Source: Escherichia phage vB_EcoM-Pr121LW
Reading direction: 5' to 3' (one strand)
Length of the DNA stretch: 64,000 bases
Sequence record: MH752840.1
The notes beneath the pieces were generated by a model. The model did no database searches, was not told the DNA's origin, and worked only from the letters and a program-made list of their open reading frames with translations. The position numbers and the translations under genes were made by a program. Of this stretch, positions 4,183 through 47,731 are shown in pieces. How positions within the stretch are numbered: position 1 is the stretch's first letter; each line of letters starts with the position of its first letter.

Positions 4183-4195
4183 TAAAGGTCTCCTT

Positions 4196-4957: not shown

Positions 4958-4965
4958 AAGTGTCC

Positions 4966-6248: not shown

Positions 6249-6291
6249 TTTGTCAGTCTATCCTGCCACACAAATAACCTAGTGTCAACAC

Positions 6292-6320
6292 TTGAAATTA
6301 ACAAAACAGTTAGGTATACT
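6292..6320 (+). promoter_or_regulatory. sigma70-like promoter (TTGAAA-N17-TATACT)
   Basis: Consensus-like -35/-10 hexamers with 17-nt spacer upstream of the kinase gene. Confidence 0.45.
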
Positions 6321-6348
6321 ATCATTAAAATTAAAACGGAGGATTGCT

Positions 6349-6759: not shown

Positions 6760-6766
6760 GGAATGT

Positions 6767-7321: not shown

Positions 7322-7368
7322 TCCCTGCTATTTTAAAGAAAATTGCCACACAAGGAGAATCAGGAGAT

Positions 7369-7719: not shown

Positions 7720-7794
7720 ACCAGTAAAAACTTAAATATCTGTACTATAAGGGTTTGTATGTTTTATGTTCACCATGGAACAGAAACTATTAAC

Positions 7795-7875
7795 TGTCCG
7801 TGATACGGACACCACTGTCCGTCACGCGGACACATCTGCCCGTAATACGGACACTAACTGTCCGTGATACGGACA
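7795..7875. repeat. four palindromic 17-bp sites at about 21-bp spacing
   Basis: TGTCCGTGATACGGACA at 7795-7811 and 7859-7875, variants at 7816-7832 and 7837-7853. Confidence 0.8.
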
Positions 7876-8010
7876 CATAAAGAATATAACTAAAATAACT
7901 AAATAATAAAAAATAAAAGATCTAGTACTTATGGTACTAAGTACATATACTTAACTTATGTAGAATATACTAGATCCTAAGTACCATGTTTTAAATTTAT
8001 TACTTTCTAT
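7876..8010. other. AT-rich tract with local palindromes (possible unwinding element)
   Basis: Strongly AT-rich stretch right after the iterons; contains GTACTTA ... TAAGTAC inverted repeats. Confidence 0.35.
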
Positions 8011-8013
8011 AGG

Positions 8014-8258
8014 TAGTGTCGGCCCTTCATTGGCACTCGCCTACGAGGGGCGAGATGCCGGGCCTCCATAGTGCACACATGCAGGTCTGTTAACATGTGT
8101 GGGAGCGAAGCGGCGCAGGCCAAAGGCCGAGCACTAATGTGGACCACCGACGAAAGCTTGCCAGCGCCGTAAGGAGTCGGTTGAGAGCCTCCCGCGCGAG
8201 TTTGGATAAAGTTTATGTGTGGAAACGGACAATGAGGCCCCTAAATCGCTCCACAGCC
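8014..8258 (+). ncRNA. candidate structured RNA or long structured leader
   Basis: GC-rich ORF-free segment with several perfect hairpins (CTCGCC/GGCGAG; CACACATG/CATGTGTG) in an otherwise AT-rich region. Confidence 0.25.
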
Positions 8259-8358
8259 ATATAAACTATACCAAGTAAGGCAATCGCACCAGTTTGATAG
8301 AAAAGCTCGTTACAAAGCGATACAGCGAGTTTTTCTATAACTTGAAGAGGAGGCAGCT

Positions 8359-8937
8359 ATGAGTCCACGCAAAGATGACCGTGAAAAGATTGCAAAACGT
8401 TATCAGAATGAAGAACAGATGGAGAAAACTTTCAAGTGGAAGCCAGGTTTCCAGCGTAATCATTCTAACGCTCGTGATCGTAAGCATCCGGATAAGTGGT
8501 TAACACCGCCAAATGATGGCATGCAGGTTGGTGATGAGAAGGAGCTGTCACCTGGAAAAGATGGCAACTACATTCGCACTAAGGAAGCAGGTCCAAAGGA
8601 TGACAGCTATCTTGTAGATAAGGTTCTTGATGGTATTGATGTGGATGTTGACACTGCACGAAACCTTTTTCTTGGTTGGTATCGTACAGGGTTTTTCGAC
8701 ATCAAGGCTATTCGTCGTGTTTGCGATATTAAAAAGTCTGCCTATGATGATGACTCTCTACATCGCACTCTGAGACAATACTCAGAGAGATACGGTCATC
8801 CAGTCATCACTATTGACGATATTAACGAAGTGATGTATCATGCAGAGGTTGTTGCAGGTAGATTCGGTGATGCATATCTCGGTATTCTTTCTGCAAAAGA
8901 TGAGGTAATGTTAAATAAAATTTACTATGAACGCTGA
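8359..8937 (+). CDS. hypothetical protein
   Basis: 192-aa ORF behind strong RBS GAGGAGG; basic N-terminus. Confidence 0.5.
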   Translation: MSPRKDDREKIAKRYQNEEQMEKTFKWKPGFQRNHSNARDRKHPDKWLTPPNDGMQVGDEKELSPGKDGNYIRTKEAGPKDDSYLVDKVLDGIDVDVDTARNLFLGWYRTGFFDIKAIRRVCDIKKSAYDDDSLHRTLRQYSERYGHPVITIDDINEVMYHAEVVAGRFGDAYLGILSAKDEVMLNKIYYER

Positions 8938-27066: not shown

Positions 27067-27097
27067 TGCGGGGGGCTCCGGCCCCCTTTATTTTTAT
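27067..27097 (+). terminator. rho-independent terminator
   Basis: Hairpin GGGGGC-TCCG-GCCCCC followed by a T-run. Confidence 0.7.
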
Positions 27098-30860: not shown

Positions 30861-31529
30861 ATGGCTGTAGCTTATCCTACAATACCAATTCCAGATCTTG
30901 AAGATGCAGAAACAGTCCTGAGTGATGACTTCTTGGTTGTCAACCAGACTGATGGGACAAGAAAGGCTAAGATTGACGATGTTGTCAACGATCTTAGCAT
31001 CACTAAGATAGTCTATTTCACAGAGGGTGGTTATCTTAAGAGTAAGAAGGACTTTGCTTATGATCCAGAAACTAAGCGCTACTACACGTGGAACGGGGAT
31101 TATCCTAAAATAATCCTCCCAGACTCCACTGTAGAGGGTGCTGGAGGTGTGTCTGCAAATGCCTGGTCTGTTTTTGGTGAGCTTGCTGCAACTTCTTCTG
31201 GCAGAATAGTTGATTACGGATCTATCGGCGGTCAGCTTGATATGGATCTTGAAGTTGCGGATACTTTTAAGGTTCGACTAACTTCAAATACCACAATCTC
31301 TTTTGAAAATCAAACAGAAGGTCTTGAAGGGGTGGCGAGAACTATAACCGTATGCATTACTCAGACCTCTGGCGGCAACAAAGTCTATTGGCCTGGTAAT
31401 GTTAAATGGTCCTACGGAAGAGATCCTATCCTAACATTTACAGCTGGTGCAACAGATATTTTCAAGTTGGAAACCTACGACAACGGGTTAACTTGGTACG
31501 GGGCACTGATTATCGCAGGAGCTATCTAA
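30861..31529 (+). CDS. fibre or spike protein with shared N-terminal anchor domain
   Basis: N-terminus (DDFLVVNQTDGTRKAKIDDVV ... EGGYL ... DFAYDPE) is paralogous to the N-terminus of the 1268-aa fibre at 34164. Confidence 0.45.
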   Translation: MAVAYPTIPIPDLEDAETVLSDDFLVVNQTDGTRKAKIDDVVNDLSITKIVYFTEGGYLKSKKDFAYDPETKRYYTWNGDYPKIILPDSTVEGAGGVSANAWSVFGELAATSSGRIVDYGSIGGQLDMDLEVADTFKVRLTSNTTISFENQTEGLEGVARTITVCITQTSGGNKVYWPGNVKWSYGRDPILTFTAGATDIFKLETYDNGLTWYGALIIAGAI

Positions 31530-31530
31530 G

Positions 31531-34128
31531 ATGCGTATTCAACATAACATTGATAACGTATTTCAGATGATTGAGGGGCACAGGAAGTGCCTCGATAACA
31601 ACACAGGTATTACCAACACCCCTACACAAAATAAGCTAGTAAACCCTGATGGTCTTATAGCTGCAGGGTGGGCAGGTAATAAGATAAATAATGATTGGGC
31701 GATGCATGAGCCCCAAGCTGTGTTGATTCTGGGATACATTGAAGCATACAGGGCATCGAAAAGCGATTTCTATCTGGATAGGGCAAAAGATGCTTGGGAA
31801 GCTTACAATAGCCATCTTCTAGGTGCATATGCAGTAGAAAGTAAAATGCAAAGATTGTCCCACTACCCTCTATCTACAGATGGGGTTCCATCACATGGTG
31901 GGTTTAAAGATGTGGTGGTGTCTTTTACCAATGGTAGAGGAAAAATCCCAGCTGGATCTCCGACATGGGGGGAATACCTGGACAAGGCATTCCAAGCGTA
32001 TAACGGCGTGTTAGGAAGAAACACTGTAGACTCTGATGTTTACGGTGGCACAGATGATAACCCAGATTGGACAACATCCGGATTAAGTTGGTGGGTTGAG
32101 TGGTATATAGCATGGGATGGTAATCGCTATTGGGCTAACGGTAGCATAGCTGATAGTGGTCATACGTCTGTAGAGTTTGGCACAATCCAATTACAAGACA
32201 AGGGTGTTACAGGCAACCACAAAGTGACCTATTGTGTAAGATTACCTCAAGAGCAGGGTGGATCGGTGATCCCTGCTGGATCCCCTGTAATTGTGAATCC
32301 TATAAACGTGGTTGCAGACAATCAAGCCCCAGAGTTGGATGGGGAAGAAATGTGGTGTGACGCTTGTTATCAACTCTACACCTTGACAGGTGAGGAAAAG
32401 TATTACACCGCGTTTAAACAGTCTTACAACAAGTTGCTTAATTTCAGTGATATAAACGCTTACGACAAACTGTTTAGAAAGACCACGTTGATTAAGGCAC
32501 CATTTACAGATGGTACTTGTCTTGTTGCAGGAACAGTTCCTGTCACGAGCAGAGACAGTGACGGGTATATCAATTTTAGAATGAACGCACGCCAGCCTTG
32601 CGAAATAATTCAAAAAGGTACCACCTACAAAATAGGCAGAGATGCTGAAATTGTCATGAATTTCGGAGGAGAGGGGGTTCTGTTCCAGCCACATTTCATC
32701 CTTAATGATGGCAACAATAACAAAAAACAGTACAGGATAGGTGTCCCTTTTGGAGGTGCAGAGGTAACAGAAATAGTTGCCAAGGTTACTGATTTCGTAG
32801 AGGTAGTTGGTAAAGACGGTAATCCGTACCTCTTACCTAAAGAGGAAAACATTGCCGTGAGCGGTGGTGCCAGTGTTAGTATGCAGTACGATACTGACAT
32901 TTACAACCACTCTGACAACTTCACCCGTTGTAATATAGCAAGAGGCAAAGTAACTTTCAATTTTGGAAGAGAGATTTCTTTAAACTCAGTAACTTATCGA
33001 TCAGATGATGAGATGGTAAGGGTCAAATTTCTTGACAAAGATAGGTGGTTATGGTATGCTGATCTATATGCCACTAATGGACAATGGATAACAGAAACTC
33101 TTACTCTAGGAGATTTCAAACTAGATCCGACACAACCTCATCACACTGAAGAAGAGATTAAACCTTTCTTTGCTAATCCTAAGGGACTCACCTCTGTAGA
33201 TTTCAGCCTAAGCGACAGACAGATAGGTAATGGCTTGTTTGATCTATATTGCGTCAACACACTGCCGCAATTCTATATTGCAGATAGGGATGCTTATCTA
33301 ATCTGGTTTAGCGTATGGATGGCAAGCAAGACAGAATCAACCGCTAAGGTTGGTGATTGCTATGTCAGAAACTACAAGCAAGGTGCATACAGGCACACTC
33401 CTGGTGTGTTCCCTGCCGGAAAGGTGATAGATAAGGAAAATTACCTCTTGGAGGAAAAGCCAAATTGGCCATATCCAGGTATGCAATACCCCGCAGTCTA
33501 CTGTATGGGTGCAGAAAACATAGATCGCTATAGGTTGTCAAATACAATAGGCTTTCTGTATGACGCTCAAGTCTGGTATAATAACACATTTAAGACAGAG
33601 GGTCCAGTCGCCTCACGTTATGTATGGCAGAGAGGTAATGAAGGATTAACTGGTTGGTGGGAGATGGTAGATAACTCTAAGCTCCAGTCAAGATCTTTTG
33701 TTGCTGCGTGCCGCACAATCTATGAGCTCAAGAAACATAAAGAACCTGTTGATGAAAGATTATTCCTGTTCTGCCAGAAATGGGCATGGTTCCTCAACAG
33801 ATTCCAGTCATCTCATTCAGGAAATCTACCTACAGACTTTAACACCTCTGGGGGATATTCTTATCAAGACAGAGGAGACAGGATGTGGGTGGTAGGTGAA
33901 TGGCTTGCAGGCTGCTGCTGGCTAGGTCTGTGCGGGTATTCAGAGACAATACCACAAATAGATATTGTTGTAGAAGCCTGTGTGAAGCTACTGCAAAAGC
34001 ACCACTTCATTAATGGTGATAATGTTTTAAACGGCTGCTGGGCAGTTTCTGATCCGGTGGGCTATCACTCTGGCGAAATCCTTCGCGGTCTGGGACTTTA
34101 TGCTCAATACCGTGGATTGTACCTTTAA
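31531..34128 (+). CDS. large virion protein (probable receptor-binding or depolymerase-type)
   Basis: 865-aa ORF within the fibre block; no catalytic motif recognised. Confidence 0.4.
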   Translation: MRIQHNIDNVFQMIEGHRKCLDNNTGITNTPTQNKLVNPDGLIAAGWAGNKINNDWAMHEPQAVLILGYIEAYRASKSDFYLDRAKDAWEAYNSHLLGAYAVESKMQRLSHYPLSTDGVPSHGGFKDVVVSFTNGRGKIPAGSPTWGEYLDKAFQAYNGVLGRNTVDSDVYGGTDDNPDWTTSGLSWWVEWYIAWDGNRYWANGSIADSGHTSVEFGTIQLQDKGVTGNHKVTYCVRLPQEQGGSVIPAGSPVIVNPINVVADNQAPELDGEEMWCDACYQLYTLTGEEKYYTAFKQSYNKLLNFSDINAYDKLFRKTTLIKAPFTDGTCLVAGTVPVTSRDSDGYINFRMNARQPCEIIQKGTTYKIGRDAEIVMNFGGEGVLFQPHFILNDGNNNKKQYRIGVPFGGAEVTEIVAKVTDFVEVVGKDGNPYLLPKEENIAVSGGASVSMQYDTDIYNHSDNFTRCNIARGKVTFNFGREISLNSVTYRSDDEMVRVKFLDKDRWLWYADLYATNGQWITETLTLGDFKLDPTQPHHTEEEIKPFFANPKGLTSVDFSLSDRQIGNGLFDLYCVNTLPQFYIADRDAYLIWFSVWMASKTESTAKVGDCYVRNYKQGAYRHTPGVFPAGKVIDKENYLLEEKPNWPYPGMQYPAVYCMGAENIDRYRLSNTIGFLYDAQVWYNNTFKTEGPVASRYVWQRGNEGLTGWWEMVDNSKLQSRSFVAACRTIYELKKHKEPVDERLFLFCQKWAWFLNRFQSSHSGNLPTDFNTSGGYSYQDRGDRMWVVGEWLAGCCWLGLCGYSETIPQIDIVVEACVKLLQKHHFINGDNVLNGCWAVSDPVGYHSGEILRGLGLYAQYRGLYL

Positions 34129-34163
34129 CATAGGGGGCTGTTTGCCCCCTTTCAGGAGAAAGA

Positions 34164-37100
34164 ATGGCTGATATTAAAGTTGTCAGAATTGAATCTCTTC
34201 CTGCCACTACCGCAGTGACAGAGGATGATTACCTGGTTGTTCAACAACCAGACCTGACCCGTCGTGTAAAAATTGGCGATGTTGTCCATGTGGATGGGAC
34301 TGTTTCTCATGTAATCTCCTTTAAGGAAGGTGGTAAGTTAAACGGCCCAATGGATTTTGCCTACTTCGAAGAGGAAGACCTCTACCTGCGTTGGAAAGGC
34401 GAATTTCCACACACCGTTCCTGCATTGTCTTCACCGTACTCAGATGGTGGGATTACTGACGCTGCATGGATGGTATATACTGATCCGTCCTTAAGGGAGG
34501 AGCTGGAATCTACCATTGGCGCATCCATGATTATGACAGCTGAAGGTCAGTCTGTCCAGGATGTAATGGATGTTACAGTTAAGACCGCCAACGATGCTAA
34601 AGCACTTGCACAGCGGGTAGATTTTGGTACCGTGCACACTGTAGGCGATGTTATTCACCTTGTCAATTTTGTTGGCCCTGCAGTTATTGAAGAGGGAAGA
34701 ACTACTAACTACCCTTCTGTAGCAGCTGGTGAAAAATTCCTGAACGGTGTGGTATCTCGTCGTGATACTACAACTGTTGATGGTATTTTCCGTGGCGCTA
34801 CCTCCGGAGCTATGTATACCATTGCAGTAACCAACGGTGTAGCAACAACAAAAAGAATAGCACTTCGTGATGAATTTAAACGCCTAGAGGCAAACAACCC
34901 AACAAGAACCATTATTCGTGCTGGCGATGATGTAAACACAGCCGGGTACTTGCAGCTTGATGCAACAGGTCGTTGGGGCATGTGGAACCAACAGACATCT
35001 TCATGGCAACCTCTTGCTGTAGAGCAAGGTGGTACAGGTGCCAGAGATGCCGCAGGTGCACGTATTAATTTAGGAACTTTTTATAAACAACGTGCAGCCC
35101 TTGAGGCAAATTTCAATATCAATAATTTGACGGGTAATCAGGATGGTGTATACTACCAGCCGATGACTGCTAATGCAACTGAGGAAAATGGCTACCCTGC
35201 AGGTTCTGGTGCTGGTCACTTAATTGTTTGGCAGAACAATGCTAACGGCGGTGCAGGTTGTCGTCAGGAATACTATCCATTCTCTAACGTAGATGTTTGG
35301 TATTTGAGAACCTATCAGGCCAACACAAATCAGTGGACTGCATGGCAGCCTATGGTCAGACCTCGTAACGATGACACCTTCAGATCTCATATCGGCCTTG
35401 GTAAAAACAACTCACCAGCATTCGGGCACCTTTACTTAGCTCAATACTCTGGAGATGTTAAATCGGCCTCAGGTATTGTACACGGTGACAAGTATAATCG
35501 AGAAGGTACTCTTGAGCATGGATATCGTATCTACTCTGAAGTAAGAAACGATAATAAAGCTTGGTTAACAATACACCTCCATAAGGGAGCTACTGGTGCA
35601 GAAACACATAGATACCTCGGATTCAGAGAGGATGGTGTTTTAGATTGTCCTAAATATATGCAGGTTGGCGATCTAAATGGTCAGCTGGCAAACTGGGGAC
35701 TGGCAGAGTGGATCCGTAGTTCAGGCGCTGAAAGAGGTTTCTGGGGTTCCAAGAAAGCAGCCAAAATGGTTATCTGGGACGGAGGCATGGATGAGTCTGG
35801 TAACGGCACTCTGGAATGGGGTGTTTATAACAACCGGAAGGCCAAGTGGGAACCTTTACCTCAAGCCGCAGGTGGTACTGGAGCTACAACTCTGGCAGAA
35901 GCTCAAAACCTGTTTAGAATACCTATGGCAGCAGGTGTAAAAGATTTCTTAACACTGCCAAGAACAGCAGCCATGGTGGATGGTAAATATTACCCTGTTA
36001 TTGTAAGAACAGATCCGTACTATGCACCAGCTGTTGGTACAGATATTACAATAGTTACAAGATCCTCTTCTGGCAACGATCCTATGAACTGCGCAACACT
36101 CCAGTGTCATTACAGAACTGGTGGTTGGACAGACCGTGGAGACTCTTTTACTGGTGTTATAAACTTCTACCAGAACGAAAGAGCAATACTTGGTTGTGTT
36201 GCTCCTACTCGCGGAAAACAAGAGTATGTTGCTTTTTATGTAGAGGCCAGAGCTTTCCCAGTAAGCGTATATACAAGCCGAAACGTGCTTGAGGTATTTA
36301 CCAGGGAAAATGACTGGCAGGTAGGGAATGTAACTGACAATCAGGACGGTGTTAAGTTTTGTGCTCCGTTAGAGTCAGCAGACTTAAATCTTGCGATAAA
36401 GGGTGATAATGTAACTAACACCAGATCTCTTGCGGAGTTTAAAGGAACATCAGGTTTTTACACAGGCGGTGGTACTCAGTGGCACTACATCGGCACACCT
36501 GAACGCTATGCGGTCATGAGTAAAATGACCATGCCTAAAGTTGAGCTGTGGGCAGATGGTATCGACTACCTATGCCCTGGTAGCCAGACCACAAGGAAAG
36601 CACTGTTCTCTAATGCTGGATTCCAGGCAGCATCTGAAGGTACAGAGGACTTAATTAACAACACATTTACTTCCAAATGCGGCAAGGGTGCAGGTCTGAA
36701 AGGCCAGTCAGAGTTCAGGTCTACCCCAGAGGCTGGACAGGTAATTGTCAGAGATGTTGTTGGTTCTGCACATAAATTCTTTAACTTCAACAAAGACGGC
36801 ACATTCTACCCTCCTGGAGGTTATGTTTGCCAGACAGGTGCGGATTGGAACAATCAGTTTGGTAACACGAACCCGTCAAAAATAATGGCTGGTAATGTTA
36901 ACGGACCTGAAGGTTCCATGGTTGTAGCAGGGTTGTCGGTCGGTTTTTCTGGAAATTATGCATTCCAGATGGCTGGTCGTCTTGATCAGTTATACACTAG
37001 GTCTATTGAGGGTGGCAATCACAGAGCGTGGAACAAGGTAATCCAACACCGTGGTCAGGGCCTAGGGACAAACGATCTTAATGACTACAAGGGCGATAGA

Positions 37101-37970
37101 GAGGGTTTTTATCATCAAGAGGCCAACTCTCAAGCCACACCTGAGAGAAACTACCCATGCGGACAGGCAGGTACTCTCCTTATCTATAGAAACTATGCTA
37201 ACGTTCCAGAGAGTTGCGTACAGGAATATACAACATATCTTGGAGAAAAATTCCTGCGTTATGGAACAACGATAGGTGGTGTTTTCACATGGGGCCATTG
37301 GCAGCAGCTTGGTGGTAAGGGTATCACTTTAAAAACTCAAGGGTCCAATCTTGAACCTGAGTTCACAATACACACAGGTGGCGGTACTGATGTTACCAAC
37401 ACTTCAAACATGCCTTCTAATACAGGCAGGTTGTACTATTGGGGTAATGGCGCGGATAGGAAGAATGTGCTGGAGTTCCAGATAAGTGATGACTCAACAG
37501 CCGCCAGCTGGGTATTCCACTGTGGAGCTAAGACAGATGAGGCTAAATCAAGATATTTTGCTGTCAACGGCACGGTAGAATGTACCACTGTTAGCCAAAG
37601 TTCCGATAGAGACCTGAAGGATAATATAGAGGTCATACCTAACGCTCTGGAAGCAATTAGAAAGATGAAAGGCTATACCTACACCTTGAAAGAGAATGGT
37701 ATGCCTTATGCAGGCGTGATTGCTCAAGAGGTTATGGAAGCATTGCCAGAGGCAGTAGGATCTTTCGTGAAAAGGAAGGAAATAGAAGGTCCTACTCAAG
37801 ACGGTACTCCTCTGATGACCGAGGAAAGGTTCTATAACGTTGACTACGCAGCCGTAACAGGCTTGCTTGTCCAGGTTTGCAGGGAGCAGGATGATAAAAT
37901 AACTGCCCTTGAGGAGCAGGTTAAAAAATTAACGGAGGTTGTTACTGGGTTGCAAGAGAAACTGAAGTAA
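34164..37970 (+). CDS. long tail fibre with C-terminal intramolecular chaperone (peptidase S74-like)
   Basis: 1268 aa; C-terminal SDRDLKDNIEVIPNALEAIRKMKGYTY motif with Ser/Lys dyad, then a coiled coil. Confidence 0.6.
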   Translation: MADIKVVRIESLPATTAVTEDDYLVVQQPDLTRRVKIGDVVHVDGTVSHVISFKEGGKLNGPMDFAYFEEEDLYLRWKGEFPHTVPALSSPYSDGGITDAAWMVYTDPSLREELESTIGASMIMTAEGQSVQDVMDVTVKTANDAKALAQRVDFGTVHTVGDVIHLVNFVGPAVIEEGRTTNYPSVAAGEKFLNGVVSRRDTTTVDGIFRGATSGAMYTIAVTNGVATTKRIALRDEFKRLEANNPTRTIIRAGDDVNTAGYLQLDATGRWGMWNQQTSSWQPLAVEQGGTGARDAAGARINLGTFYKQRAALEANFNINNLTGNQDGVYYQPMTANATEENGYPAGSGAGHLIVWQNNANGGAGCRQEYYPFSNVDVWYLRTYQANTNQWTAWQPMVRPRNDDTFRSHIGLGKNNSPAFGHLYLAQYSGDVKSASGIVHGDKYNREGTLEHGYRIYSEVRNDNKAWLTIHLHKGATGAETHRYLGFREDGVLDCPKYMQVGDLNGQLANWGLAEWIRSSGAERGFWGSKKAAKMVIWDGGMDESGNGTLEWGVYNNRKAKWEPLPQAAGGTGATTLAEAQNLFRIPMAAGVKDFLTLPRTAAMVDGKYYPVIVRTDPYYAPAVGTDITIVTRSSSGNDPMNCATLQCHYRTGGWTDRGDSFTGVINFYQNERAILGCVAPTRGKQEYVAFYVEARAFPVSVYTSRNVLEVFTRENDWQVGNVTDNQDGVKFCAPLESADLNLAIKGDNVTNTRSLAEFKGTSGFYTGGGTQWHYIGTPERYAVMSKMTMPKVELWADGIDYLCPGSQTTRKALFSNAGFQAASEGTEDLINNTFTSKCGKGAGLKGQSEFRSTPEAGQVIVRDVVGSAHKFFNFNKDGTFYPPGGYVCQTGADWNNQFGNTNPSKIMAGNVNGPEGSMVVAGLSVGFSGNYAFQMAGRLDQLYTRSIEGGNHRAWNKVIQHRGQGLGTNDLNDYKGDREGFYHQEANSQATPERNYPCGQAGTLLIYRNYANVPESCVQEYTTYLGEKFLRYGTTIGGVFTWGHWQQLGGKGITLKTQGSNLEPEFTIHTGGGTDVTNTSNMPSNTGRLYYWGNGADRKNVLEFQISDDSTAASWVFHCGAKTDEAKSRYFAVNGTVECTTVSQSSDRDLKDNIEVIPNALEAIRKMKGYTYTLKENGMPYAGVIAQEVMEALPEAVGSFVKRKEIEGPTQDGTPLMTEERFYNVDYAAVTGLLVQVCREQDDKITALEEQVKKLTEVVTGLQEKLK

Positions 37971-37977
37971 CTGTTTT

Positions 37978-38003
37978 GCCCTCGCTTCGGCGGGGGCTTT
38001 TTT
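37978..38003 (+). terminator. rho-independent terminator
   Basis: Hairpin GCCCTCGC-TTCG-GCGGGGGC followed by TTTTTT. Confidence 0.7.
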
Positions 38004-38070: not shown

Positions 38071-38661
38071 ATGTTTTTATGGGAAAGGCCTAGATACCTT
38101 CCAGATATTAGATTGGAGCTGCTGGCAGATATTGTTACGTTTAAAAGTCCGTTTACAGGTAAAACGCAAAAAGTAACCTATGCCACACCTAACTGGAAAG
38201 GCACTTTGACGGTTTCCAATATCAGCGAGTCACAGTTGCTAGAGCTTAAGAGCTTTGTTGATCAGGTGTATAAAGATGGGAACATATTTCTCATTAAAAC
38301 TTACGGTCACTCAGTAACAGCTAATGAGCCAATCGCCCTTGGGCCTACTGGTAACGACGATTTTTTGAAGACGGTTGGGTGGGAGCCAAACAGAGACATA
38401 GCTAGAGCTGGGGATAAAATATCTGTCAATGATGAATTGAAAGTGGTAACAGCTCCAGTACGCAGCGATGGTGTTGGGTCTGCTGTTATAAGCATATCTC
38501 CAAGACTTAGAAAACCTATTGCCGCAGGGGATACTATGAAGATAATAACTCAATCCCCAAAGGGTAGGTTTCATATCAGAGATATTTATAAAATTAAGCA
38601 AAAAGTCGATGCTATGCAAAAAGGTGATAATATAGTTATCAACTTCTTTGAGGATTTCTAA
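38071..38661 (+). CDS. minor tail protein (possibly lambda M-like)
   Basis: 196 aa; first gene of a four-gene block ending in the J-like gene. Confidence 0.35.
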   Translation: MFLWERPRYLPDIRLELLADIVTFKSPFTGKTQKVTYATPNWKGTLTVSNISESQLLELKSFVDQVYKDGNIFLIKTYGHSVTANEPIALGPTGNDDFLKTVGWEPNRDIARAGDKISVNDELKVVTAPVRSDGVGSAVISISPRLRKPIAAGDTMKIITQSPKGRFHIRDIYKIKQKVDAMQKGDNIVINFFEDF

Positions 38662-38662
38662 G

Positions 38663-39214
38663 ATGATTAGAGCGCCATTAGATAATTTATTTCTTGAGAA
38701 GCTGGAGCTTGATGGTGTTGAGATCTTAATTGCTGCAAAGCTAGAGCTACCGACAGGGACTGTCAGGGTGTGCTCAGGCACTGGTGTTGTAGTAATTGAG
38801 GGTCAACATTTTATAGGGATAGGTGGATCAGCAACATTAACTGCTGTGTCTGAGAAAGATGCCACCAACTTCGGATCTGTGGTAGCAACATTGAACGGGT
38901 TTGATCCTAAGTATGTTGGTGATCTACTGAAGACGGAGTATTCTGGTTGTCGTGCCACGTTGTACATTACCGCTATGGAGAATGGTCTGCCTGTTACAAC
39001 TAATGGTTTGTTTGACGGCCTTATAACAGATATGGCTATTCAGACAGGTGAGAACAGTGCTTTGTCCATATCCATCTCTTCCATCTTCAACAGTTGGTTA
39101 AGAGGTTTTCCTTATCGGTACACGGAGGAAAGCCACAGCTCAAGAAACGATAATGACAGATTTTTTAAATATGTGGATCAGGTGGCGAGCCGCCCGATCA
39201 TTTGGGAGGTTTAA
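38663..39214 (+). CDS. minor tail protein (possibly lambda L-like)
   Basis: Start at ATG 38663 behind GAGGA; second gene of the J-like block. Confidence 0.35.
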   Translation: MIRAPLDNLFLEKLELDGVEILIAAKLELPTGTVRVCSGTGVVVIEGQHFIGIGGSATLTAVSEKDATNFGSVVATLNGFDPKYVGDLLKTEYSGCRATLYITAMENGLPVTTNGLFDGLITDMAIQTGENSALSISISSIFNSWLRGFPYRYTEESHSSRNDNDRFFKYVDQVASRPIIWEV

Positions 39215-39639
39215 TGAGCACACATCCTCGTTTAGTAGATTGGCAAGAAAGATTGTGGAAAGTGTTTGACGAAGAGGCCACCATACCTTTTGAATGGGGA
39301 TTCCACGATTGTTGCACCTTTGCAGCCAAGTGTGTTGATGCCCAGTACGGAACAGATTTTCTTTCTAACTTCGAAGGAACGTATAAAACAGAGTTGGAAA
39401 GCAAAAGATGGTGCATGCTCCGTTTCAAAACCACACACCTGCCTACTATTTTTGATCTCTTTATGACTCGGCTGGATACTCATAAACAGGTTCAGCGTGG
39501 AGATATTGTCATTTTCGAAGGTCTGAACGGGCTCACCGCTGGTGTGTTCTGGAACAACCAGATTTGGGCGAAAGGTGATAAAGGGGTCTTTATGTTCGAC
39601 ATGAAAGATTCTATCGTTGTTGATGTCTGGAGGTATTAA
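39214..39639 (+). CDS. tail-tip protein (possibly lambda K-like)
   Basis: Start at ATG 39214 behind GGGAGG; Cys/His segment FEWGFHDCCTF; position just upstream of the J-like gene. Confidence 0.35.
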   Translation: MSTHPRLVDWQERLWKVFDEEATIPFEWGFHDCCTFAAKCVDAQYGTDFLSNFEGTYKTELESKRWCMLRFKTTHLPTIFDLFMTRLDTHKQVQRGDIVIFEGLNGLTAGVFWNNQIWAKGDKGVFMFDMKDSIVVDVWRY

Positions 39640-42600
39640 TGCCAATTGCAATGATTGATAACATCGTTGCTTCTGCAAGATCTTCAAGTTATGACTGGAA
39701 CGCATCCAAGGCAGCTCTGGCTGACAGCCTGAACACTGTTACCACCAGAACTCTGGATAAGATTTTTGAGGGCAACAAATCTTACAGAAGTCAGCAAGAT
39801 AGACAAAAGCTTCTCAGATCTTCTGCTGCACCCTGCTCTGTAGTGTATGGGAAGACACGCACGTCTGGGCTGCTTGCGTTTTTGGAGCAGGACAGAGACA
39901 GAACCCTCCATTGTGCCATTGTTCTTGCTAATCATCCTCTGGAAGGTATAGAAGACATACTCATCGACGGTAATCCTATTTCCTCGTATGGAGATCTGGT
40001 ATCGTGGGAGCTACATAACGACAGAAAAACATCTGATCCTTTCATGGGTACACACTGCCCATCGTGGTCACCAGATATGATAGGCAGAGGTATCAGTTGG
40101 CTGCGTGCCAGCTTCAAGTTTGACCCCAGTAAGTTTCCTTTTGGGTTGCCAAACGTTACACTGGTCAAGGTTGGTAAAAAATGCTATGACCCCCGCATCA
40201 GTAAAGAGGTGTATACCAATAACGCGGCCTTGGTGATCCTGGACTATTTAAGAACGTACCTTAAATGTCCTGACGAAACCATCAACTGGGAGTCCTTTAG
40301 GGAGGCTGCCAATATATGCGACGAGGCGGTAAAAAACGCTGACGGAACCAGTGAGCGACGTTACACCATTAACGGTGAGTTTGACATGGATGAGGCCCCA
40401 GCAAGTATTATGGCAGAAATGCTGAAAGCTTGCGGTGCAGACCTTAGTTATGTTGCTGGTAAGTATGGTTTGCTGGTTGGTGCATACTATGGCCCAGCAA
40501 CAATGACACTGAGTGAGGATTGTGTCTGTGGTGAGGTCAAGATCTATCCGGAAGCCTCCTTTGACAAGAGATCCAACACAATAACTGGCAGATTCACTAG
40601 TCCGACCAAAGGGTATTCTGAAACAGATTTTCCATCAGTGTTTGTCCCAGAGTGGATAGAGAAGGATGGAGAAAGAAAGATAATTGATATAGACTATCGC
40701 TTTGTTACCAGTCCTTATCAAGCTCAGCGTGTTTCTGCAATCTTCTTAAGACGTGCTAGAGCTGGCAGGATTATTGAAGTCACCTGCAATATGCGAGGTT
40801 TTAAATTTAAACCTGGCCGTTACGTTACAATGGACCTTCCAAGTATTGGTATAGTAGGCCAAGAAATGAGGGTTCTTGAATGGGAGTTCACCAAAAAGGG
40901 CGGTGTCAAGGTAAAACTTCGTCAAGATGCTAAAGAGTGGAATGATGCCACAGGGCAACTTCCGGATTCTGGTGATGTAGATATTCCGATATCTCCATCT
41001 GGTGTAGCTCAACCGCAAAACTTCAGATATTCCGTTCTCCAAGCCGGGGAAGTAACTCACGGTGTTTTGGCTTGGGACAACGTTGGAACTTACGCTCAAA
41101 ATATTGTGCAGGTAAGAAAGAACGGAGAGATTGTTTGGACAGCACAGACAGTTGAGCAGTTTGTCCGAGTAGAAGGCTTGACCAAAGGATCATACACAGC
41201 AACCGTGGTTGCAACATCTTATAAAGGTGGTGTATCTCCAGAAGCGTACTGCGAGTTCAACATTCAGGCACCTGAAGCTCCTGTTTCTGTGGAGGTTAAG
41301 CAGGGATACTTTGCTATTACCCTGATCCCGCACAGCAGAGACTTGGCTAGTGTAAGCACCCAGTACGACTTTTGGACATCTGGGATGACAAGATTGCCAG
41401 ATACCAGTGATGTAACAGTTACTTCAAAAGCCACTCGTATGGGTGTTGGTTCAACTTGGACATCTGAAGGTCTGCAGAACGATAAGATTTATTACTGGTA
41501 TATCAGGACAACAAATGCTTTTGGTTCATCTGCTTTTGTGGAGTGTGCAGCCCACTGTTACACATCCATAGAAGATCTTATGCCACAGATTGATGCTGAG
41601 TTCAAAAAGACAGAGACTTATAAAGAGCTTACCGCCAATCTTGATAATGCAGTCAAGGAAATGGATAAAAATGTTGGTGCAGTCAATGACCGTGTTACTA
41701 GCATTTTTGAAGAGCTTGGGGATACAATAGAGGGTGTTGTCAGAGAGACGACAGAAAAATTTACAGGGGTTAATGGAGAAATTTCTGCCCTTAACAGTAA
41801 GCTGGTAGCAGCTCAGCAATCCTTTGACGATAAACTTGCAGCAGAGTCTGGTAGGCTTGGGTCACTAATCGAGACAACAAATAGATCAACCGTTGATCTT
41901 GTTAATCGTAAAACTCAAGCATTGAGTGAGCAAATAACTGCAACTCAAGGTGCTCTGCGGGAAGAGTTGAAGAACACTGAGAGCAAACTTAACTCCTCTA
42001 TTCAAGAAACCAACAAGGCAACAACCGATCTGCTAAATAAGACAACGGAAGCTATTAAGCAGGATCTGGTGGCAGCTACAGGGAAGATCACCAAGCTGGA
42101 AGATGATGTGCAGAAAGAGGTTGCCAATCTGCAAGCATCTATTCAAGAAACTAATAGTACAACAGTTGATCTTGTTAATAATACAGCCACAGCGATCCGT
42201 CAAGAACTTACCTCTGCAAAACAAGAAATTGTTGACGAAATGGGTAATATTGATGAGCTCAGGGCTACAGTATCTAATACCTCTAAAGCTGTAACAACAC
42301 TTGAGGGTAAAATAGATGCTCAGTGGGGAGCTAAGATTCAGGTTGACAGCCATGGTAATAAATATGTGGCAGGTATCCAGCTGGGCATGGAGGGGTCTGG
42401 AGGACAAGTTCAATCATACTTCATGGTTAGTGCAAACAACTTTGCGGTATACAACCCCGGAAATGGAACAGCAACCCTTGCTTTCGCAATCAAGAACAAC
42501 CAAGCGTTCTTGAAAGACGCTTTTATAGAGAATGGCACGATCTCCTCTGCCAAGATCGCACAAGAAATTTCGTCAAACAACTACGATGGCAACGGGTACC

Positions 42601-43058
42601 ATAAATACGGTTGGTATATTAACAAGAACGGGCATGCCCAATTTATGGATGTGTGGGTGAAAGGCAACATCAACGCCAGTTCTGGTAACTTCACAGGGGC
42701 AGTTAATGCCACCAGTGGTACCTTCCGTGGAGATGTTTATGCCAATAATGGTAGCTTTAGAGGCACCATAGATGCAACCGGAGGTACATTCCGTGGTCGT
42801 GTAGAAGCTTCTGTTATCCGTGCTAACCAGTTCGAAGGTGCAATTGTTGCACACAGGACTTACGGAGATTGTGCTCCAGTGCATAACTCCCAGCAGAGGG
42901 TTTGCCGTTGGAGGTGGAGATACGTAGATAACGTTTCAGGTCAAGGTAAGAACGTAACATTCTTCTTTAAACTGAACGGTACTCGTGCCAACTCCCAACT
43001 AAATGCGTGGATAGCTGGTCATCAACTCCTTGCTGGCAAGAAGTACGGGAACGGATAA
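39639..43058 (+). CDS. lambda J-like central tail fibre protein, truncated by a tandem duplication
   Basis: 1139 aa; segments (YYWYIRTTNAFGSSAFVE; QWGAKIQVDSHGNKYVAGIQLGMEG ... NNFAVYNPGNG) match lambda J as I recall it; stop falls at the junction of the 127-bp repeat. Confidence 0.7.
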   Translation: MPIAMIDNIVASARSSSYDWNASKAALADSLNTVTTRTLDKIFEGNKSYRSQQDRQKLLRSSAAPCSVVYGKTRTSGLLAFLEQDRDRTLHCAIVLANHPLEGIEDILIDGNPISSYGDLVSWELHNDRKTSDPFMGTHCPSWSPDMIGRGISWLRASFKFDPSKFPFGLPNVTLVKVGKKCYDPRISKEVYTNNAALVILDYLRTYLKCPDETINWESFREAANICDEAVKNADGTSERRYTINGEFDMDEAPASIMAEMLKACGADLSYVAGKYGLLVGAYYGPATMTLSEDCVCGEVKIYPEASFDKRSNTITGRFTSPTKGYSETDFPSVFVPEWIEKDGERKIIDIDYRFVTSPYQAQRVSAIFLRRARAGRIIEVTCNMRGFKFKPGRYVTMDLPSIGIVGQEMRVLEWEFTKKGGVKVKLRQDAKEWNDATGQLPDSGDVDIPISPSGVAQPQNFRYSVLQAGEVTHGVLAWDNVGTYAQNIVQVRKNGEIVWTAQTVEQFVRVEGLTKGSYTATVVATSYKGGVSPEAYCEFNIQAPEAPVSVEVKQGYFAITLIPHSRDLASVSTQYDFWTSGMTRLPDTSDVTVTSKATRMGVGSTWTSEGLQNDKIYYWYIRTTNAFGSSAFVECAAHCYTSIEDLMPQIDAEFKKTETYKELTANLDNAVKEMDKNVGAVNDRVTSIFEELGDTIEGVVRETTEKFTGVNGEISALNSKLVAAQQSFDDKLAAESGRLGSLIETTNRSTVDLVNRKTQALSEQITATQGALREELKNTESKLNSSIQETNKATTDLLNKTTEAIKQDLVAATGKITKLEDDVQKEVANLQASIQETNSTTVDLVNNTATAIRQELTSAKQEIVDEMGNIDELRATVSNTSKAVTTLEGKIDAQWGAKIQVDSHGNKYVAGIQLGMEGSGGQVQSYFMVSANNFAVYNPGNGTATLAFAIKNNQAFLKDAFIENGTISSAKIAQEISSNNYDGNGYHKYGWYINKNGHAQFMDVWVKGNINASSGNFTGAVNATSGTFRGDVYANNGSFRGTIDATGGTFRGRVEASVIRANQFEGAIVAHRTYGDCAPVHNSQQRVCRWRWRYVDNVSGQGKNVTFFFKLNGTRANSQLNAWIAGHQLLAGKKYGNG

Positions 43059-43180
43059 CGTTTCAGGTCAAGGTAAGAACGTAACATTCTTCTTTAAACT
43101 GAACGGTACTCGTGCCAACTCCCAACTAAATGCGTGGATAGCTGGTCATCAACTCCTTGCTGGCAAGAAGTACGGGAACG
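42927..43180 (+). repeat. perfect tandem direct duplication, 2 x 127 bp
   Basis: 42927-43053 and 43054-43180 are identical base for base; 127 is not a multiple of 3. Confidence 0.9.
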
Positions 43181-43365
43181 CCAACGATGGCATGTGTGCA
43201 ATTGGGATAACAGGTCTAGGTGAACAAACTATAGACATTATTATTGAAATCTACACCCCGTGGTCAACGTCAAACGTGACAGGTGTCACAATCTCCTGTC
43301 CCACTGTGATCGTTAGTCGTTCTAACTCAAGCTTCCAGGGACCTTGGAACGAGTCTCACGACTAA
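43054..43365 (+). pseudogene. displaced C-terminal coding segment of the J-like gene (+1 frame)
   Basis: Frame +1 re-encodes DNVSGQGKNVTFFF...KKYGN from repeat copy 2 and continues ANDGMCAIGITG... to a stop at 43365; no independent RBS or ATG. Confidence 0.5.
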
Positions 43366-44972: not shown

Positions 44973-45659
44973 ATGGCAGAGATTAAGTCGGATGTTAACC
45001 ACATCCACACTCTGCCAGATTTTGTTCAGGGGGGTCTTGACTACCTGCCTGGAGATTTTCTGGCTGAGAAGGTTAATTTAGTCACATTCTTAACCGTGTA
45101 CCTTAAAAGGTTGGAGGATGTTGATAAGATGCTGGTAGGTTTGGCTGAAGGAAGATTGCTTAACAATGCCAGCGGAAGATACCTTGACGAAGTTGGTAAT
45201 CAACTCGGTATTCTTAGGAATGGACTTTCAGATGCTGATTTTCGTGCCACACTAATTATTCAGCAGGCCGCAGCATCAAGGGGCGGGACTCGCGAAGATG
45301 TCATCTCCACCTTGCGACAATTGTTCGGAAGAGACAATTTCGATACGTGGAAAGGAGACAACTTCAGGTTTGACATAAATATTAGAAAAACTTGCTTTGA
45401 CATATTGCAGTCTATTGATCAGATCTTAGACATGCTACCACTGCCTTGTCATTTGCGTCTTACAGAATCGCAAGGGCAAGCTTTTGGTTTTGAAGGTGAC
45501 TCTACAGCTCTTGGCTTCGGATCAGTGTGGGAAGAAAACCAATTCGGAGTTGGTGGGCTGGCTACTTTGCTGTATGTTCCTGACGTAAGACCTGATTGGG
45601 ACACCACAACCATTTATTGTGAAAGCATTACAGTAAACGCAACTAGACAGGAGGGTTAA
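44973..45659 (+). CDS. baseplate protein (gpI-like position)
   Basis: 228-aa ORF immediately after the baseplate J-like gene. Confidence 0.4.
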   Translation: MAEIKSDVNHIHTLPDFVQGGLDYLPGDFLAEKVNLVTFLTVYLKRLEDVDKMLVGLAEGRLLNNASGRYLDEVGNQLGILRNGLSDADFRATLIIQQAAASRGGTREDVISTLRQLFGRDNFDTWKGDNFRFDINIRKTCFDILQSIDQILDMLPLPCHLRLTESQGQAFGFEGDSTALGFGSVWEENQFGVGGLATLLYVPDVRPDWDTTTIYCESITVNATRQEG

Positions 45660-47731
45660 TGGCAACAGCTGTTTTTAAACCTTACCGTGATTACTCTACA
45701 ATGGCTGCACGGTTTCATTACCGCACAGTTCAGGATACTGCCGTTCCTGGTAGGGATTATGATCATGTTGAGGGCGATATAACTATCCCAGTTGGGGCAA
45801 CCAGTATTGAGATTCCAGTGGAAATTGTTGACAAATTACCCAACAGGTTACCAAGAAGCTTCTTTATGGAGTTTTCATCAAAATCTCAAGGGGTGATGAT
45901 TGGAACACAAAGGGCGAAATGCACAATAGTTTCAGATGAGAATCTTGACAGGATATCTTGGGATACTGTCGAGGAGAGAATGTTTCACCCAAGATATTGG
46001 GTTACAACTACTCAGCAGACTGAAAGTACCTGTATTGTTGCAGATGACAACTGTTGTATTAACCGTTTAGTGTCAAGAACATATGGAGGTATGGCTGGGT
46101 GCATTTGGGAAACAGTTGACAAGTATGACCATTTCGGTATTGGGTTTGATGATCACTATGAGATGAGAAACACCAAGCTTTGGTTCAGAATGTCAATAAC
46201 CAATGCCAGCAACTTCTCCACTCCTGAAAAGATGATTATGACTGTAGACCTTGTTGATGGTACAATCATCTATGTTCCTTTAGCTCAATATGCTGTCAGC
46301 ATCTCAGAGGATAAGAATGTTGCAGAGATTCATATTGATTTCGAGGACTGCGTCGGGATGGATCAGAACAACAACATGATGGGTGTTGATCCTCGACAGG
46401 TGAGAAGAATTTTAATACCGCTTATGCCTAAAGACTGGGTAAGTAATAGCACAGACCCGAGAACGGAAAATGTAGAGTGTGAGTTGCGCCTAGATCTGCT
46501 TCAGCCAGACACGGGCTGGAAAATGATGCAACTTAACAATATTCAGGTTAAAGAGCACGACGTTGGGATCTGCACCGCATATGACGATATGTGGAACGTA
46601 TCTCCTTTAAGGGTGTTGAACAATATCAAGCGTCTGGGCTATACCGGAACCATAAACCATTATGTTGGTATGAGTCATTATTATGACTACACATGGTCAG
46701 GAACCCAATGGTCTATAAACAGAACAGGGGCGCTAAACGCTGCAGCTTATAAATGGCATGATGATTTTATGTACAATGCCAAACGACATAACTTCGACGT
46801 TATGCAGTCTGTAAGTTTTGAGCTTTACAGCGATGCCTGCCCGTTGGAATGGACCCAAAGAGACTGGAATGATAACTACGCTAAAACAGGATATACACCT
46901 TGTAGCTACCTCCTGTCTCCAACCATTGAAGAGGGTATGAATTTCCTTACTGCAGTATTTAAGAATTTTGCATCAGCCGCTATGAGAAACAACCTGCCAG
47001 TGATTATGCAGGTTGGTGAACCGTGGTGGTGGTACAATACCGATACTCGTAGACCTTGTATTTATGATTACCCTACAAAACAGGCGTTTTATGATGAGAC
47101 AGGCGAGTATGCCTTAGATATTGGGACTATTGACGATCCTAAAACTGGAGGTGTTTACGACAAGTATGTAGCATTTTGTCGTGGTAAGCTTGGCGCTCGT
47201 ATTGCGGCTATTTCAAAGGCAATAAAGGCGCATGCTGCATCAGCTAAGATGACAGCTCTGCTGTTTTTCCCAACCATTATGGAAACCGAACTTACGCAAA
47301 AGCTTAACCTTGCTGACCAATATAAAAAAGAAGCAGGTGCTCTTGATTTCTTCTGCACTGAGTGCTACGATTGGGTGATGCAGGGAGGTATTGAAAAGGC
47401 AAAAGAGTCTGTAAACATACCTATCGTTAAGTTAGGTTGGCAACCGTCTGAAATACAATACCTTGCAGGGTTCGTTCCTAGTAAAGAGCTTGCTCCGGTA
47501 TATGGATACGACCCAACTAGGAATTACCAAGAATTTTTATGGAGATGTATTTGCGGAAACATGGCAACTATAGAGTATAGATACCCTGAGGTAAAACAGT
47601 ATGTGTGGGCATACCCGCAAGTAATGTCTGACAGCATCACTGTTACCGCTAGAGATTCTACCGTGCTTCATATGGGGCAGGTTGCTCTGAAAGGGTATGT
47701 AGAAGATGTTGTCCCGCCAGACTTCTCATAA
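45659..47731 (+). CDS. virion protein with N-terminal Calx-beta-like domain
   Basis: 690 aa; N-terminal motif TAVPGRDYDHVEGDITIPVGATSIEIPVEIVD ... FFMEF fits the Calx-beta pattern. Confidence 0.45.
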   Translation: MATAVFKPYRDYSTMAARFHYRTVQDTAVPGRDYDHVEGDITIPVGATSIEIPVEIVDKLPNRLPRSFFMEFSSKSQGVMIGTQRAKCTIVSDENLDRISWDTVEERMFHPRYWVTTTQQTESTCIVADDNCCINRLVSRTYGGMAGCIWETVDKYDHFGIGFDDHYEMRNTKLWFRMSITNASNFSTPEKMIMTVDLVDGTIIYVPLAQYAVSISEDKNVAEIHIDFEDCVGMDQNNNMMGVDPRQVRRILIPLMPKDWVSNSTDPRTENVECELRLDLLQPDTGWKMMQLNNIQVKEHDVGICTAYDDMWNVSPLRVLNNIKRLGYTGTINHYVGMSHYYDYTWSGTQWSINRTGALNAAAYKWHDDFMYNAKRHNFDVMQSVSFELYSDACPLEWTQRDWNDNYAKTGYTPCSYLLSPTIEEGMNFLTAVFKNFASAAMRNNLPVIMQVGEPWWWYNTDTRRPCIYDYPTKQAFYDETGEYALDIGTIDDPKTGGVYDKYVAFCRGKLGARIAAISKAIKAHAASAKMTALLFFPTIMETELTQKLNLADQYKKEAGALDFFCTECYDWVMQGGIEKAKESVNIPIVKLGWQPSEIQYLAGFVPSKELAPVYGYDPTRNYQEFLWRCICGNMATIEYRYPEVKQYVWAYPQVMSDSITVTARDSTVLHMGQVALKGYVEDVVPPDFS

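Follow-up and report, generated by a model that had tools for sequence, protein, structure and literature searches.

How two proteins of very different length, encoded on either side of a third, come to begin with the same stretch of sequence, and what kind of appendage the three would build, is the question raised by positions 30861-37970 of a 64,000-nucleotide stretch of DNA from Escherichia phage vB_EcoM-Pr121LW (sequence record MH752840.1). This whole stretch is the window referred to below. Three open reading frames (ORFs), all on the plus strand, lie exactly where a preliminary description of this DNA had placed them:

30861-31529, plus strand: ORF for a small fibre protein of 222 amino acids (aa), orthologue of rV5 gp43
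31531-34128, plus strand: ORF for an 865-aa tail protein, orthologue of rV5 gp42 and phi92 gp141
34164-37970, plus strand: ORF for a 1268-aa long lateral tail fibre, a predicted precursor, orthologue of rV5 gp41

Sequence and synteny identify this block as the gp43-gp42-gp41 lateral-fibre cassette that is conserved in Vequintavirus, to which the rV5-like myophages belong. The whole block is 92.7% identical in nucleotide (nt) sequence to Bas58 and other Vequintavirus genomes (range 92-93%), and a nucleotide search found at least 80% of it covered in 113 phage records. Bas58, SophiaRose, LL12, ECP32 and rV5 have a gene order identical to that of this block; in Bas58 and rV5, a sheath-initiator-like gp44 is followed by gp43 (222 aa), gp42 (865 aa) and gp41 (1266-1272 aa). 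The rV5 proteins gp41, gp42 and gp43 have all been detected in virions by mass spectrometry (PMC3606486). The main facts of the cassette are therefore largely known, having been published or annotated years ago, and they belong to ordinary phage tail-fibre biology. What is added here is modest: an adaptor in two parts that is paired in three genera, a confidently predicted fold for gp42/gp141 and a fusion link to gp34/gp142. These points serve mainly as hypotheses for assigning the fibres of phi92 and rV5. Taken as a whole, the explanation developed here, which combines the identity of the cassette and its adaptor with a mosaic fibre, the gp42 fold and a mechanism of assembly, is in our judgement quite probably correct.

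The preliminary description had proposed that the 222-aa protein and the fibre begin with a related domain of roughly 70 residues. Pairwise alignment bears out the relatedness: residues 8-105 of the 222-aa protein and residues 7-105 of the fibre are identical at 38 of 99 positions (38%; BLASTP E=3e-18). The length had been set too short, since the shared region extends over about 105 residues and has two parts. The motifs EGG-x-L and DFAY, quoted for this domain, are present in it, and a third, Q-x-D-x-TR-x-KI-x-DVV, had been given with its spacing off by one (it reads TR-x-x-KI). The two copies of what we term the adaptor are as follows:

30861-31175, plus strand: adaptor copy 1, residues 1-105 of the 222-aa protein
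34164-34478, plus strand: adaptor copy 2, residues 1-105 of the fibre (N-peptide, 1-45; Tail_spike_N, 46-103)

The Pfam family Tail_spike_N (PF18668), with a curated cut-off of 25 bits, matches residues 51-105 of the 222-aa protein (41.0 bits, E=2.1e-10) and residues 46-103 of the fibre (40.9 bits). Upstream of these matches, the first ~45 residues have no Pfam match, and downstream of the adaptor the fibre continues in a neck-like segment to about residue 140. As delimited by these comparisons, the adaptor comprises an N-peptide of ~45 residues, a Tail_spike_N head domain (46-105) and a neck-like segment, in that order. We describe it as bipartite because its parts also occur separately: phi92 gp140 and gp143 carry the N-peptide and lack the Tail_spike_N part (~46-105), and phi92 gp151 carries Tail_spike_N only. 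Over its first ~40 residues the N-peptide has the consensus I-x-x-L-P-x4-V-x3-D-Y/F-L-V-x2-Q-x3-T-K/R, which is common to four proteins, namely the 222-aa protein, the fibre, phi92 gp140 and phi92 gp143 (an endosialidase). In a search with a profile made from the pair in the window, the scores are 24.9 bits for phi92 gp140 and 21.2 bits for gp143, which match each other with E=1e-4. Among the 134 ORFs of at least 80 aa in the window, a profile of both N-termini found no third copy of the adaptor.

Among rV5-like phages the adaptor is 98-100% conserved, and identity over the first 136 residues of the fibre is 99% or more in 111 phage records. Proteins of Kuttervirus and Seunavirus match fibre residues 1-134 only, those of Kuttervirus at ~37% identity. 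A recent intragenomic duplication was considered as the origin of the two copies and was rejected, since they are 38% identical to one another and each is ~99-100% conserved, and since the pairing is also found in Seunavirus and phi92.

That several receptor-binding proteins may carry one N-terminal adaptor is well known, and a common module carrying different distal parts, as the preliminary description had it, agrees with everything that we tested; docking to the virion is the presumed part of that proposal. The adaptor sequence matches the head and neck regions of solved tailspikes (9OCC, 9D84, 4QNL, 5W6H and 4OJ5), and the best of these matches is to gp13, the tailspike of the Shigella siphophage Sf11 (9OCC; fibre residues 51-138 against gp13 residues 67-157, E=1.3e-10). 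Cryo-electron microscopy (cryo-EM) of Sf11 gp13 places its residues 4-59 in a bundle with the adaptor helix of the distal tail protein; this binding segment lies upstream of the Tail_spike_N-homologous domain, and a hinge is located at residue 162 (PMC12724387). The N-terminus of rV5 gp43 has itself been likened to that of the P22 tailspike (PMC3606486). By analogy with Sf11 gp13, the N-peptide is the most likely contact, and head and neck would serve as a trimerisation unit and hinge.

A different function for the shared N-terminus would be that of a generic trimerisation or neck scaffold, with attachment to the virion made through other surfaces or other proteins. Such a scaffold would suit the distribution of Tail_spike_N, which occurs in 1425 phage records and is often internal rather than N-terminal, and it would suit CBA120 TSP4, which has D1-D2 heads yet anchors through separate AD/XD domains. 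In CBA120 TSP1 and TSP3, however, the head domains are themselves docking elements, since these two proteins bind their partners via the D1-D2 heads in analytical ultracentrifugation (PMC8825819). Moreover, the module stands at the extreme N-terminus of both proteins considered here, with no other candidate anchor upstream, and the ~45-residue N-peptide is co-retained by the small protein and its cargo in three genera, even without Tail_spike_N (phi92). We consider a generic scaffold improbable and retain a docking adaptor. The tandem D1-D2 head of CBA120 TSP1, TSP3 and TSP4 is not found here, each protein having one Tail_spike_N stretch; given that CBA120 TSP2 is also single-headed, a tandem head is not strictly defining.

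The co-retention of the N-peptide is seen in the corresponding blocks of two other groups of phages. At the same genomic place, the Enterobacter phage FENT2 (Seunavirus) encodes a 224-aa protein (PHROG 7760), a 929-aa protein (PHROG 2871) and a 712-aa spike described as 'colanic acid degradation' (colanidase-type), with wedge genes directly after. The first 103 residues of the FENT2 small protein and spike are 50% identical (E=4e-30). The syntenic block of phi92 consists of gp139, gp140, gp141, gp142 and gp143, the endosialidase. A small protein and a large middle one are thus kept in three genera, together with a receptor-binding protein whose N-terminus matches that of the small protein. Given that the adaptor is shared and the cargo differs, being a long fibre in Vequintavirus, a colanidase-type spike in Seunavirus and an endosialidase in phi92, the third gene position can be regarded as an exchangeable receptor-binding 'slot'.

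In the window, this slot is occupied by a member of PHROG 6578 (1700 bits) that is 85% identical in amino acid sequence to rV5 gp41. In comparison with four other rV5-like alleles, fibre residues 1-250 are 96-100% identical, residues 1001-1150 are 53-65% identical, and the chaperone at residues 1151-1268 is 72-83% identical. The match to fibres of T5-like and other siphophages extends over residues ~168-1263 and takes in the chaperone; for T5-like Salmonella phages the identity is 33-40%, with alignments over residues 168-1263 or 237-1263 at 33-37%. No siphophage match falls within residues 1-167. Siphophage matches that are distal only, taken together with Kuttervirus and Seunavirus matches that are N-terminal only, point to a lineage-specific adaptor joined to horizontally exchanged distal parts. 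As pieced together from these alignments, the fibre is a mosaic of the lineage-specific adaptor, a ~1000-residue T5-like L-shaped body, a variable tip and an S74 chaperone. The following parts lie beyond the adaptor:

35115-35354, plus strand: internal repeat copy 1, fibre residues 318-397
37074-37310, plus strand: internal repeat copy 2, fibre residues 971-1049
37164-37601, plus strand: region of greatest variability in the fibre, residues ~1001-1146, the presumed receptor-binding tip
37602-37967, plus strand: predicted Peptidase_S74/intramolecular chaperone domain, residues 1147-1268

The two ~80-residue repeats are 31% identical (segment BLASTP, E=3e-10). They emerged from a comparison of segments; a self-BLAST of the whole fibre gave the identity hit only. 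Repeat copy 1 is preceded by a collar-type motif, GGTGA, at residue 289, and the collar-type segments at residues 266-300 and 547-581 match one another (E=2e-5). At the distal end, LL12-type alleles keep residues 1-1048 and then have a different tip of ~430 residues without S74. In phage LL12 (L004), the fibre gene (4001-8440) is followed by an extra 110-aa ORF (8440-8772) with no Pfam hit, and this ORF may encode a separate assembly factor that replaces the intramolecular chaperone.

The preliminary description had also assigned an S74-type chaperone motif to the end of the fibre, and here a profile search concurs: Peptidase_S74 (PF13884) matches residues 1147-1198 (E=7.6e-15), with a score of 55.4 bits against a curated cut-off of 22, and the motifs SDRDLKDN and GYTYTLKENG, on which the assignment had been based, are both present. 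Position 1 of the profile falls on Ser1147, the predicted scissile residue, and the predicted general base, Lys1152, follows within the sequence S-D-R-D-L-K, so that the Ser/Lys dyad is in place. The domain occupies the last 122 residues, a C-terminal location and a length that conform to a chaperone of this class, for which about 120-160 residues are expected, and it ends in a putative heptad-rich helix whose terminal ITALEEQVKKLTEVVTGLQEKLK segment was read directly from the sequence. For rV5 gp41, a coiled coil detected by PCOILS has been reported (PMC3606486), and Table S3 for rV5 lists gp41 as 'L-shaped tail fiber protein; PF13884 Peptidase_S74'. The spacing of the dyad is that of T5 pb1, in which it is formed by Ser1264 and Lys1269 and in which the S1264A substitution blocks processing (PMC4690869). 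Likewise, the experimentally annotated C-terminal product of phi92 gp143 starts S757-D-G-T-L-K762, the same S-D-x-x-L-K pattern, and the chaperone also resembles the chaperone region of S16 gp37 (6F45). From the intact dyad we infer that the fibre cleaves itself before Ser1147, which would yield a mature fibre of residues 1-1146 (predicted mass, 125.5 kDa) and a released chaperone of residues 1147-1268 (13.7 kDa).

Were the S74 domain instead a degenerate remnant, it would stay uncleaved and be kept as the distal end of the mature fibre. The bands observed in sodium dodecyl sulfate-polyacrylamide gel electrophoresis (SDS-PAGE) of rV5, at 288, 174, 52, 26 and 9.7 kDa, include no obvious 125-kDa species, which speaks for such a remnant. 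Degeneration is difficult to reconcile with a profile score of 55 bits against a 22-bit cut-off and with Ser and Lys residues that are intact and in register with proven sites, and the chaperone is less variable than the tip that precedes it (identities of 0.72-0.83 versus 0.53-0.65). A weak additional point against a remnant is that no chaperone peptide is found in rV5 virions: when the published mass spectrometry data were re-mapped, eight gp41 peptides fell at residues 434-1073 and none in residues 1151-1272, an outcome with a chance probability of 0.45. We regard an uncleaved remnant as very improbable, and autocleavage remains our preferred reading.

The preliminary description had stated that the 865-aa protein has no recognised motif. 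This holds for Pfam, in which the protein has no hit, and does not hold more generally, since the protein is a member of PHROG 2871 'tail protein' and its predicted fold can be recognised. In the predicted model, the protein would form an (α/α)6 barrel like that of the six-hairpin glycosidases, with barrel helices at residues 59-96, 269-306 and 663-863 and with β-rich inserts at residues ~100-265 and ~320-650 that interrupt the barrel. A first AlphaFold 2 (AF2) model, computed from 6 sequences, had a predicted local distance difference test (pLDDT) score of 51.7 and was discarded. A word-indexed search had given only 5 relatives of the 865-aa protein, and an exhaustive search was used instead. 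The protein is 98.4% identical to four other rV5-like alleles and 35% identical to phi92 gp141 over its full length (E=4e-176). Candidate polar residues that are invariant or nearly so throughout the family are E60, Q62, D270, W274, N671, R721 and E849.

These residues bear upon whether the 865-aa protein is an enzyme or a purely structural arm that has an (α/α)6 fold, lacks enzymatic activity and binds glycans or acts as a scaffold. Their positions are at the beginnings of barrel helices or close by, where six-hairpin enzymes have their active sites, and they would on that account favour an enzyme, as does the glycosidase function predicted earlier for phi92 gp141 (table in PMC5380687) and for the Bas58 orthologue. 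A structural arm accords better with the lack of any match to a CAZy-type family. The best match of the family profile to the PDB is one 28-residue helix hairpin (E=1.3e-3), and 2 of 34 relatives touch glycoside hydrolase family 76 (GH76; E=0.003). A structural arm accords, too, with a sequence that is extremely conserved whatever the host O or K type, and with the fact that no catalytic residues were identified. In our estimate, the structural arm is a strong contender that falls somewhat short of an even prospect.

A gene fusion linking the adaptor to the (α/α)6 protein is unsupported, since no member of the 865-aa family carries the adaptor, including those members with N-terminal extensions of ~270 aa. 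In two cluster representatives (P0023 and P0028), relatives of the 865-aa protein have NCTSP_N and TIM-barrel_NCTSP domains fused at the C-terminus. The same domains occur in a protein encoded elsewhere in the window:

45659-47731: 690-aa protein of the rV5 gp34/phi92 gp142 type, with Calx-beta, NCTSP_N and TIM-barrel_NCTSP domains

Because the fused relatives share these domains with the 690-aa protein, they provide a hint that the two proteins are physically associated. In a further relative, of 1250 aa (P0018), a large insert at residues ~430-770 has repeated motifs that resemble RCC1-type β-propeller blades by eye.

The 222-aa protein consists of the N-peptide (residues 1-45), the Tail_spike_N head (46-105) and a small distal domain (109-222). 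It belongs to PHROG 7760 'tail fiber protein' (E=8e-120) and is 98.9% identical across four other rV5-like phages; a word-indexed search gave only 4 relatives. Searches of Pfam and of PDB sequences with the distal domain gave no match, even when thresholds were permissive; the domain aligns with residues 44-157 of phi92 gp140 (42% identity, E=1.5e-28). Rather than an independent mini-fibre, this protein might be an adaptor or connector between the baseplate and either the (α/α)6 protein or the long fibre, in which case the N-terminal similarity would enable it to co-assemble with the long fibre, for example at neighbouring sites within one branched fibre. The 1-nt gap between the 222-aa and 865-aa genes, which are translationally coupled, is compatible with a connector, as is the near-invariance of both proteins (~98-99%). 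So, too, are a C-terminal domain without a recognisable receptor-binding homologue and the presence in phi92 of a second fibre that branches from the base of fibre I and is still without a gene assignment. The same C-terminal domain is found, however, at the distal ends of PHROG 'tail fiber' families (phrog_9017, 32568, 22179 and 3904), and because it ends several tail fibres, a tip domain fits better than a connector. A connector is possible, if doubtful, and we continue to treat the 222-aa protein as a mini-fibre.

If the parts are considered together, the following mechanism can be proposed. The cassette genes would form one late transcription unit with those of the baseplate hub. The C-terminal chaperone would nucleate trimerisation at the fibre's distal end and would then cleave itself off before Ser1147, leaving a mature fibre of 1146 residues with its variable tip exposed, and this tip would bind a strain-variable surface structure. 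Trimers of the fibre and of the mini-fibre would plug, via the shared adaptor, into equivalent sites on a conserved peripheral baseplate or fibre scaffold, with the N-peptide as the main contact and with head and neck as trimerisation unit and hinge. The likeliest acceptor would be the conserved arm that the (α/α)6 protein (gp42/gp141) makes up, perhaps in combination with the protein of the gp34/gp142 type; a wedge protein would be the next candidate. Of these elements, sequence and structure prediction show the fold, motifs, homologies and pattern of conservation, and we infer the docking partner, the self-cleavage, any enzymatic activity and the receptor.

A more tentative proposal, which we hold to be conceivable and well short of probable, is that the small protein, the (α/α)6 protein and the cargo form one branched appendage across Vequintavirus, Seunavirus and phi92-like phages. 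Its proximal arm would be composed of gp42/gp141 and the N4-gp65-like TIM-barrel protein gp34/gp142, and it would offer two acceptor sites for N-peptides, one of them for the invariant mini-fibre and the other for the exchangeable receptor-binding protein. If this is true, the branched appendage would account for the unassigned proximal fibre I and fibre II in the cryo-EM maps of phi92, and an adaptor of ~45-105 residues would be a portable element for retargeting these broad-host-range phages.

Several points weigh against the explanation favoured here. The N-peptide is short, and its matches in phi92 are modest scores obtained in a small search set. The binding site of either adaptor copy is shown by neither experiment nor structure in any rV5-like or phi92-like virion, and the 2026 cryo-EM study of phi92 left fibres I and II unresolved and gp140, gp141 and gp142 unplaced (PMC13450770). 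No glycoside-hydrolase sequence family was matched by the 865-aa protein, for which the (α/α)6 assignment comes from a predicted model only and the catalytic residues are candidates. Finally, at the peptide coverage obtained for rV5 virions, missing chaperone peptides would be expected by chance 45% of the time, so that their absence is consistent with cleavage and is not evidence for it.

The proposal of a single late transcription unit draws on the RNA elements that flank and divide these genes:

27070-27087, plus strand: strong intrinsic terminator found by a terminator scan, the upstream counterpart of the one at 37978-37997
34132-34150, plus strand: GC-rich hairpin between the 865-aa and fibre genes, with a 7-bp stem and a 5-nt loop (-15.1 kcal/mol)
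37978-37997, plus strand: intrinsic terminator with an 8-bp stem of which 7 pairs are GC, and a T-run (-16.9 kcal/mol); it closes the transcription unit

The two strong terminators bracket the genes from the tube initiator, including the hub genes, through the fibre, which suggests one late transcription unit. Terminator-like sites in the region number 19 versus a shuffled expectation of 8.9 (~2x), and a scan for sigma-70-like promoters was uninformative (27 sites versus 23.6 expected). The 865-aa gene's stop codon is directly followed by the hairpin at 34132-34150, which lies just 5' of the ribosome-binding site of the fibre gene and is without a full U-tract. This hairpin is near-identical in six Vequintavirus genomes (rV5, Bas58, SophiaRose, LL12 and ECP32 among them) and has no counterpart in FENT2. 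Its role might be that of an attenuator, or of an element affecting RNA stability, by which the amounts of the 865-aa protein and the fibre are set relative to one another.

Directly after the fibre gene, and within the fibre locus of this myovirus, lies a lambda-like tail-tip module (38071-43365) to which phi92 has nothing equivalent at that position. It includes the following genes:

38071-38661: distal-tail-protein-like gene
38648-39214: PHROG 2048 tail protein
39202-39639: DUF6950 protein ('cell wall hydrolase' in Bas58)
39639-43058: gpJ-like protein with Ig_J and Phage_Tail_Tip domains

The gpJ-like gene contains a perfect 127-nt tandem duplication (42927-43053/43054-43180). Since 127 is not a multiple of 3, the duplication shifts the reading frame. 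The Bas58 orthologue is one ORF of 1199 aa; here, residues 1-1138 and 1097-1199 are in different frames, and residues 1097-1199 are encoded by an overlapping 111-aa ORF at 43030-43365. The duplication may be a genuine mutation that truncates the protein, or it may have arisen artificially in assembly. A separate observation concerns the relatives of this phage in the databases, among which ~18-25 near-identical rV5-like records were deposited as 'Campylobacter phage' with Campylobacter jejuni as the host. This host is unexpected for a genus of coliphages, and the records may reflect contamination or mislabelling.

Phages of the rV5-like and phi92-like groups, which have a broad host range, are candidates for therapy, and their multi-fibre adsorption apparatus has been only partly assigned to genes. 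One adaptor with an exchangeable slot in three genera would define a boundary for host-range engineering, at residues ~1-105, or to ~167. The gp42 fold and the gp34/gp142 fusion link would likewise provide concrete candidates for fitting the unresolved fibre densities of phi92.

Among known systems, the closest are rV5 itself (Kropinski et al. 2013, PMC3606486), which has the orthologues in the same order with sizes of 222, 865 and 1272 aa, and the BASEL phage Bas58 (PMC8594841), whose orthologous genes lie in a block that is ~92% identical in nucleotide sequence. The two smaller proteins of the rV5-like phages are 98-99% identical in amino acid sequence to those of this block, whereas in its variable distal fibre this phage has an allele of its own that differs from that of rV5. 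In the papers that we consulted, we found neither an outright mention of one adaptor common to gp43 and gp41 nor a fold assignment for gp42. With respect to that fold, the 865-aa protein has only 9-13% sequence identity to GH8, GH105/YteR, GH76, GH88 and the AGE superfamily, and it differs from the six-hairpin glycosidases and epimerases in that its barrel is split by two large β-rich inserts and that it has no family-level sequence match.

The L-shaped fibres of the T5 type (pb1-like) resemble the fibre described here in that they are long and trimeric and have a chaperone with a Ser...Lys (i, i+5) dyad. They differ in that their N-terminal ~167 residues are unrelated to those of this fibre and in that they sit on the collar of a siphovirus, whereas this fibre would sit at the baseplate periphery of a myovirus. 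The N-terminal segment of Sf11 gp13 is a helical one, bound to a helix in the distal tail protein, whereas the N-peptide described here is proline- and β-rich in sequence.

The Justusliebigvirus phi92 (Schwarzer et al. 2012; Chen et al. 2026, PMC13450770) has its block at the same position, after the sheath-initiator gene, and its gp143 cargo carries the same N-peptide. That cargo, in place of a long fibre, is an endosialidase spike; the Tail_spike_N part that accompanies the N-peptide in both proteins of the window is lacking from gp140 and gp143; and gp142 lies inside the block, whereas its homologue in this phage is encoded at 45659-47731. The Kuttervirus CBA120 has T4 gp10-like XD acceptor domains, none of which was detected in this block, and its cargos are β-helix depolymerases, whereas those of this block are a fibre and a 114-residue domain. 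With TSP1-4 of CBA120, the cassette nevertheless has in common that several receptor-binding proteins of one virion carry homologous Tail_spike_N heads.

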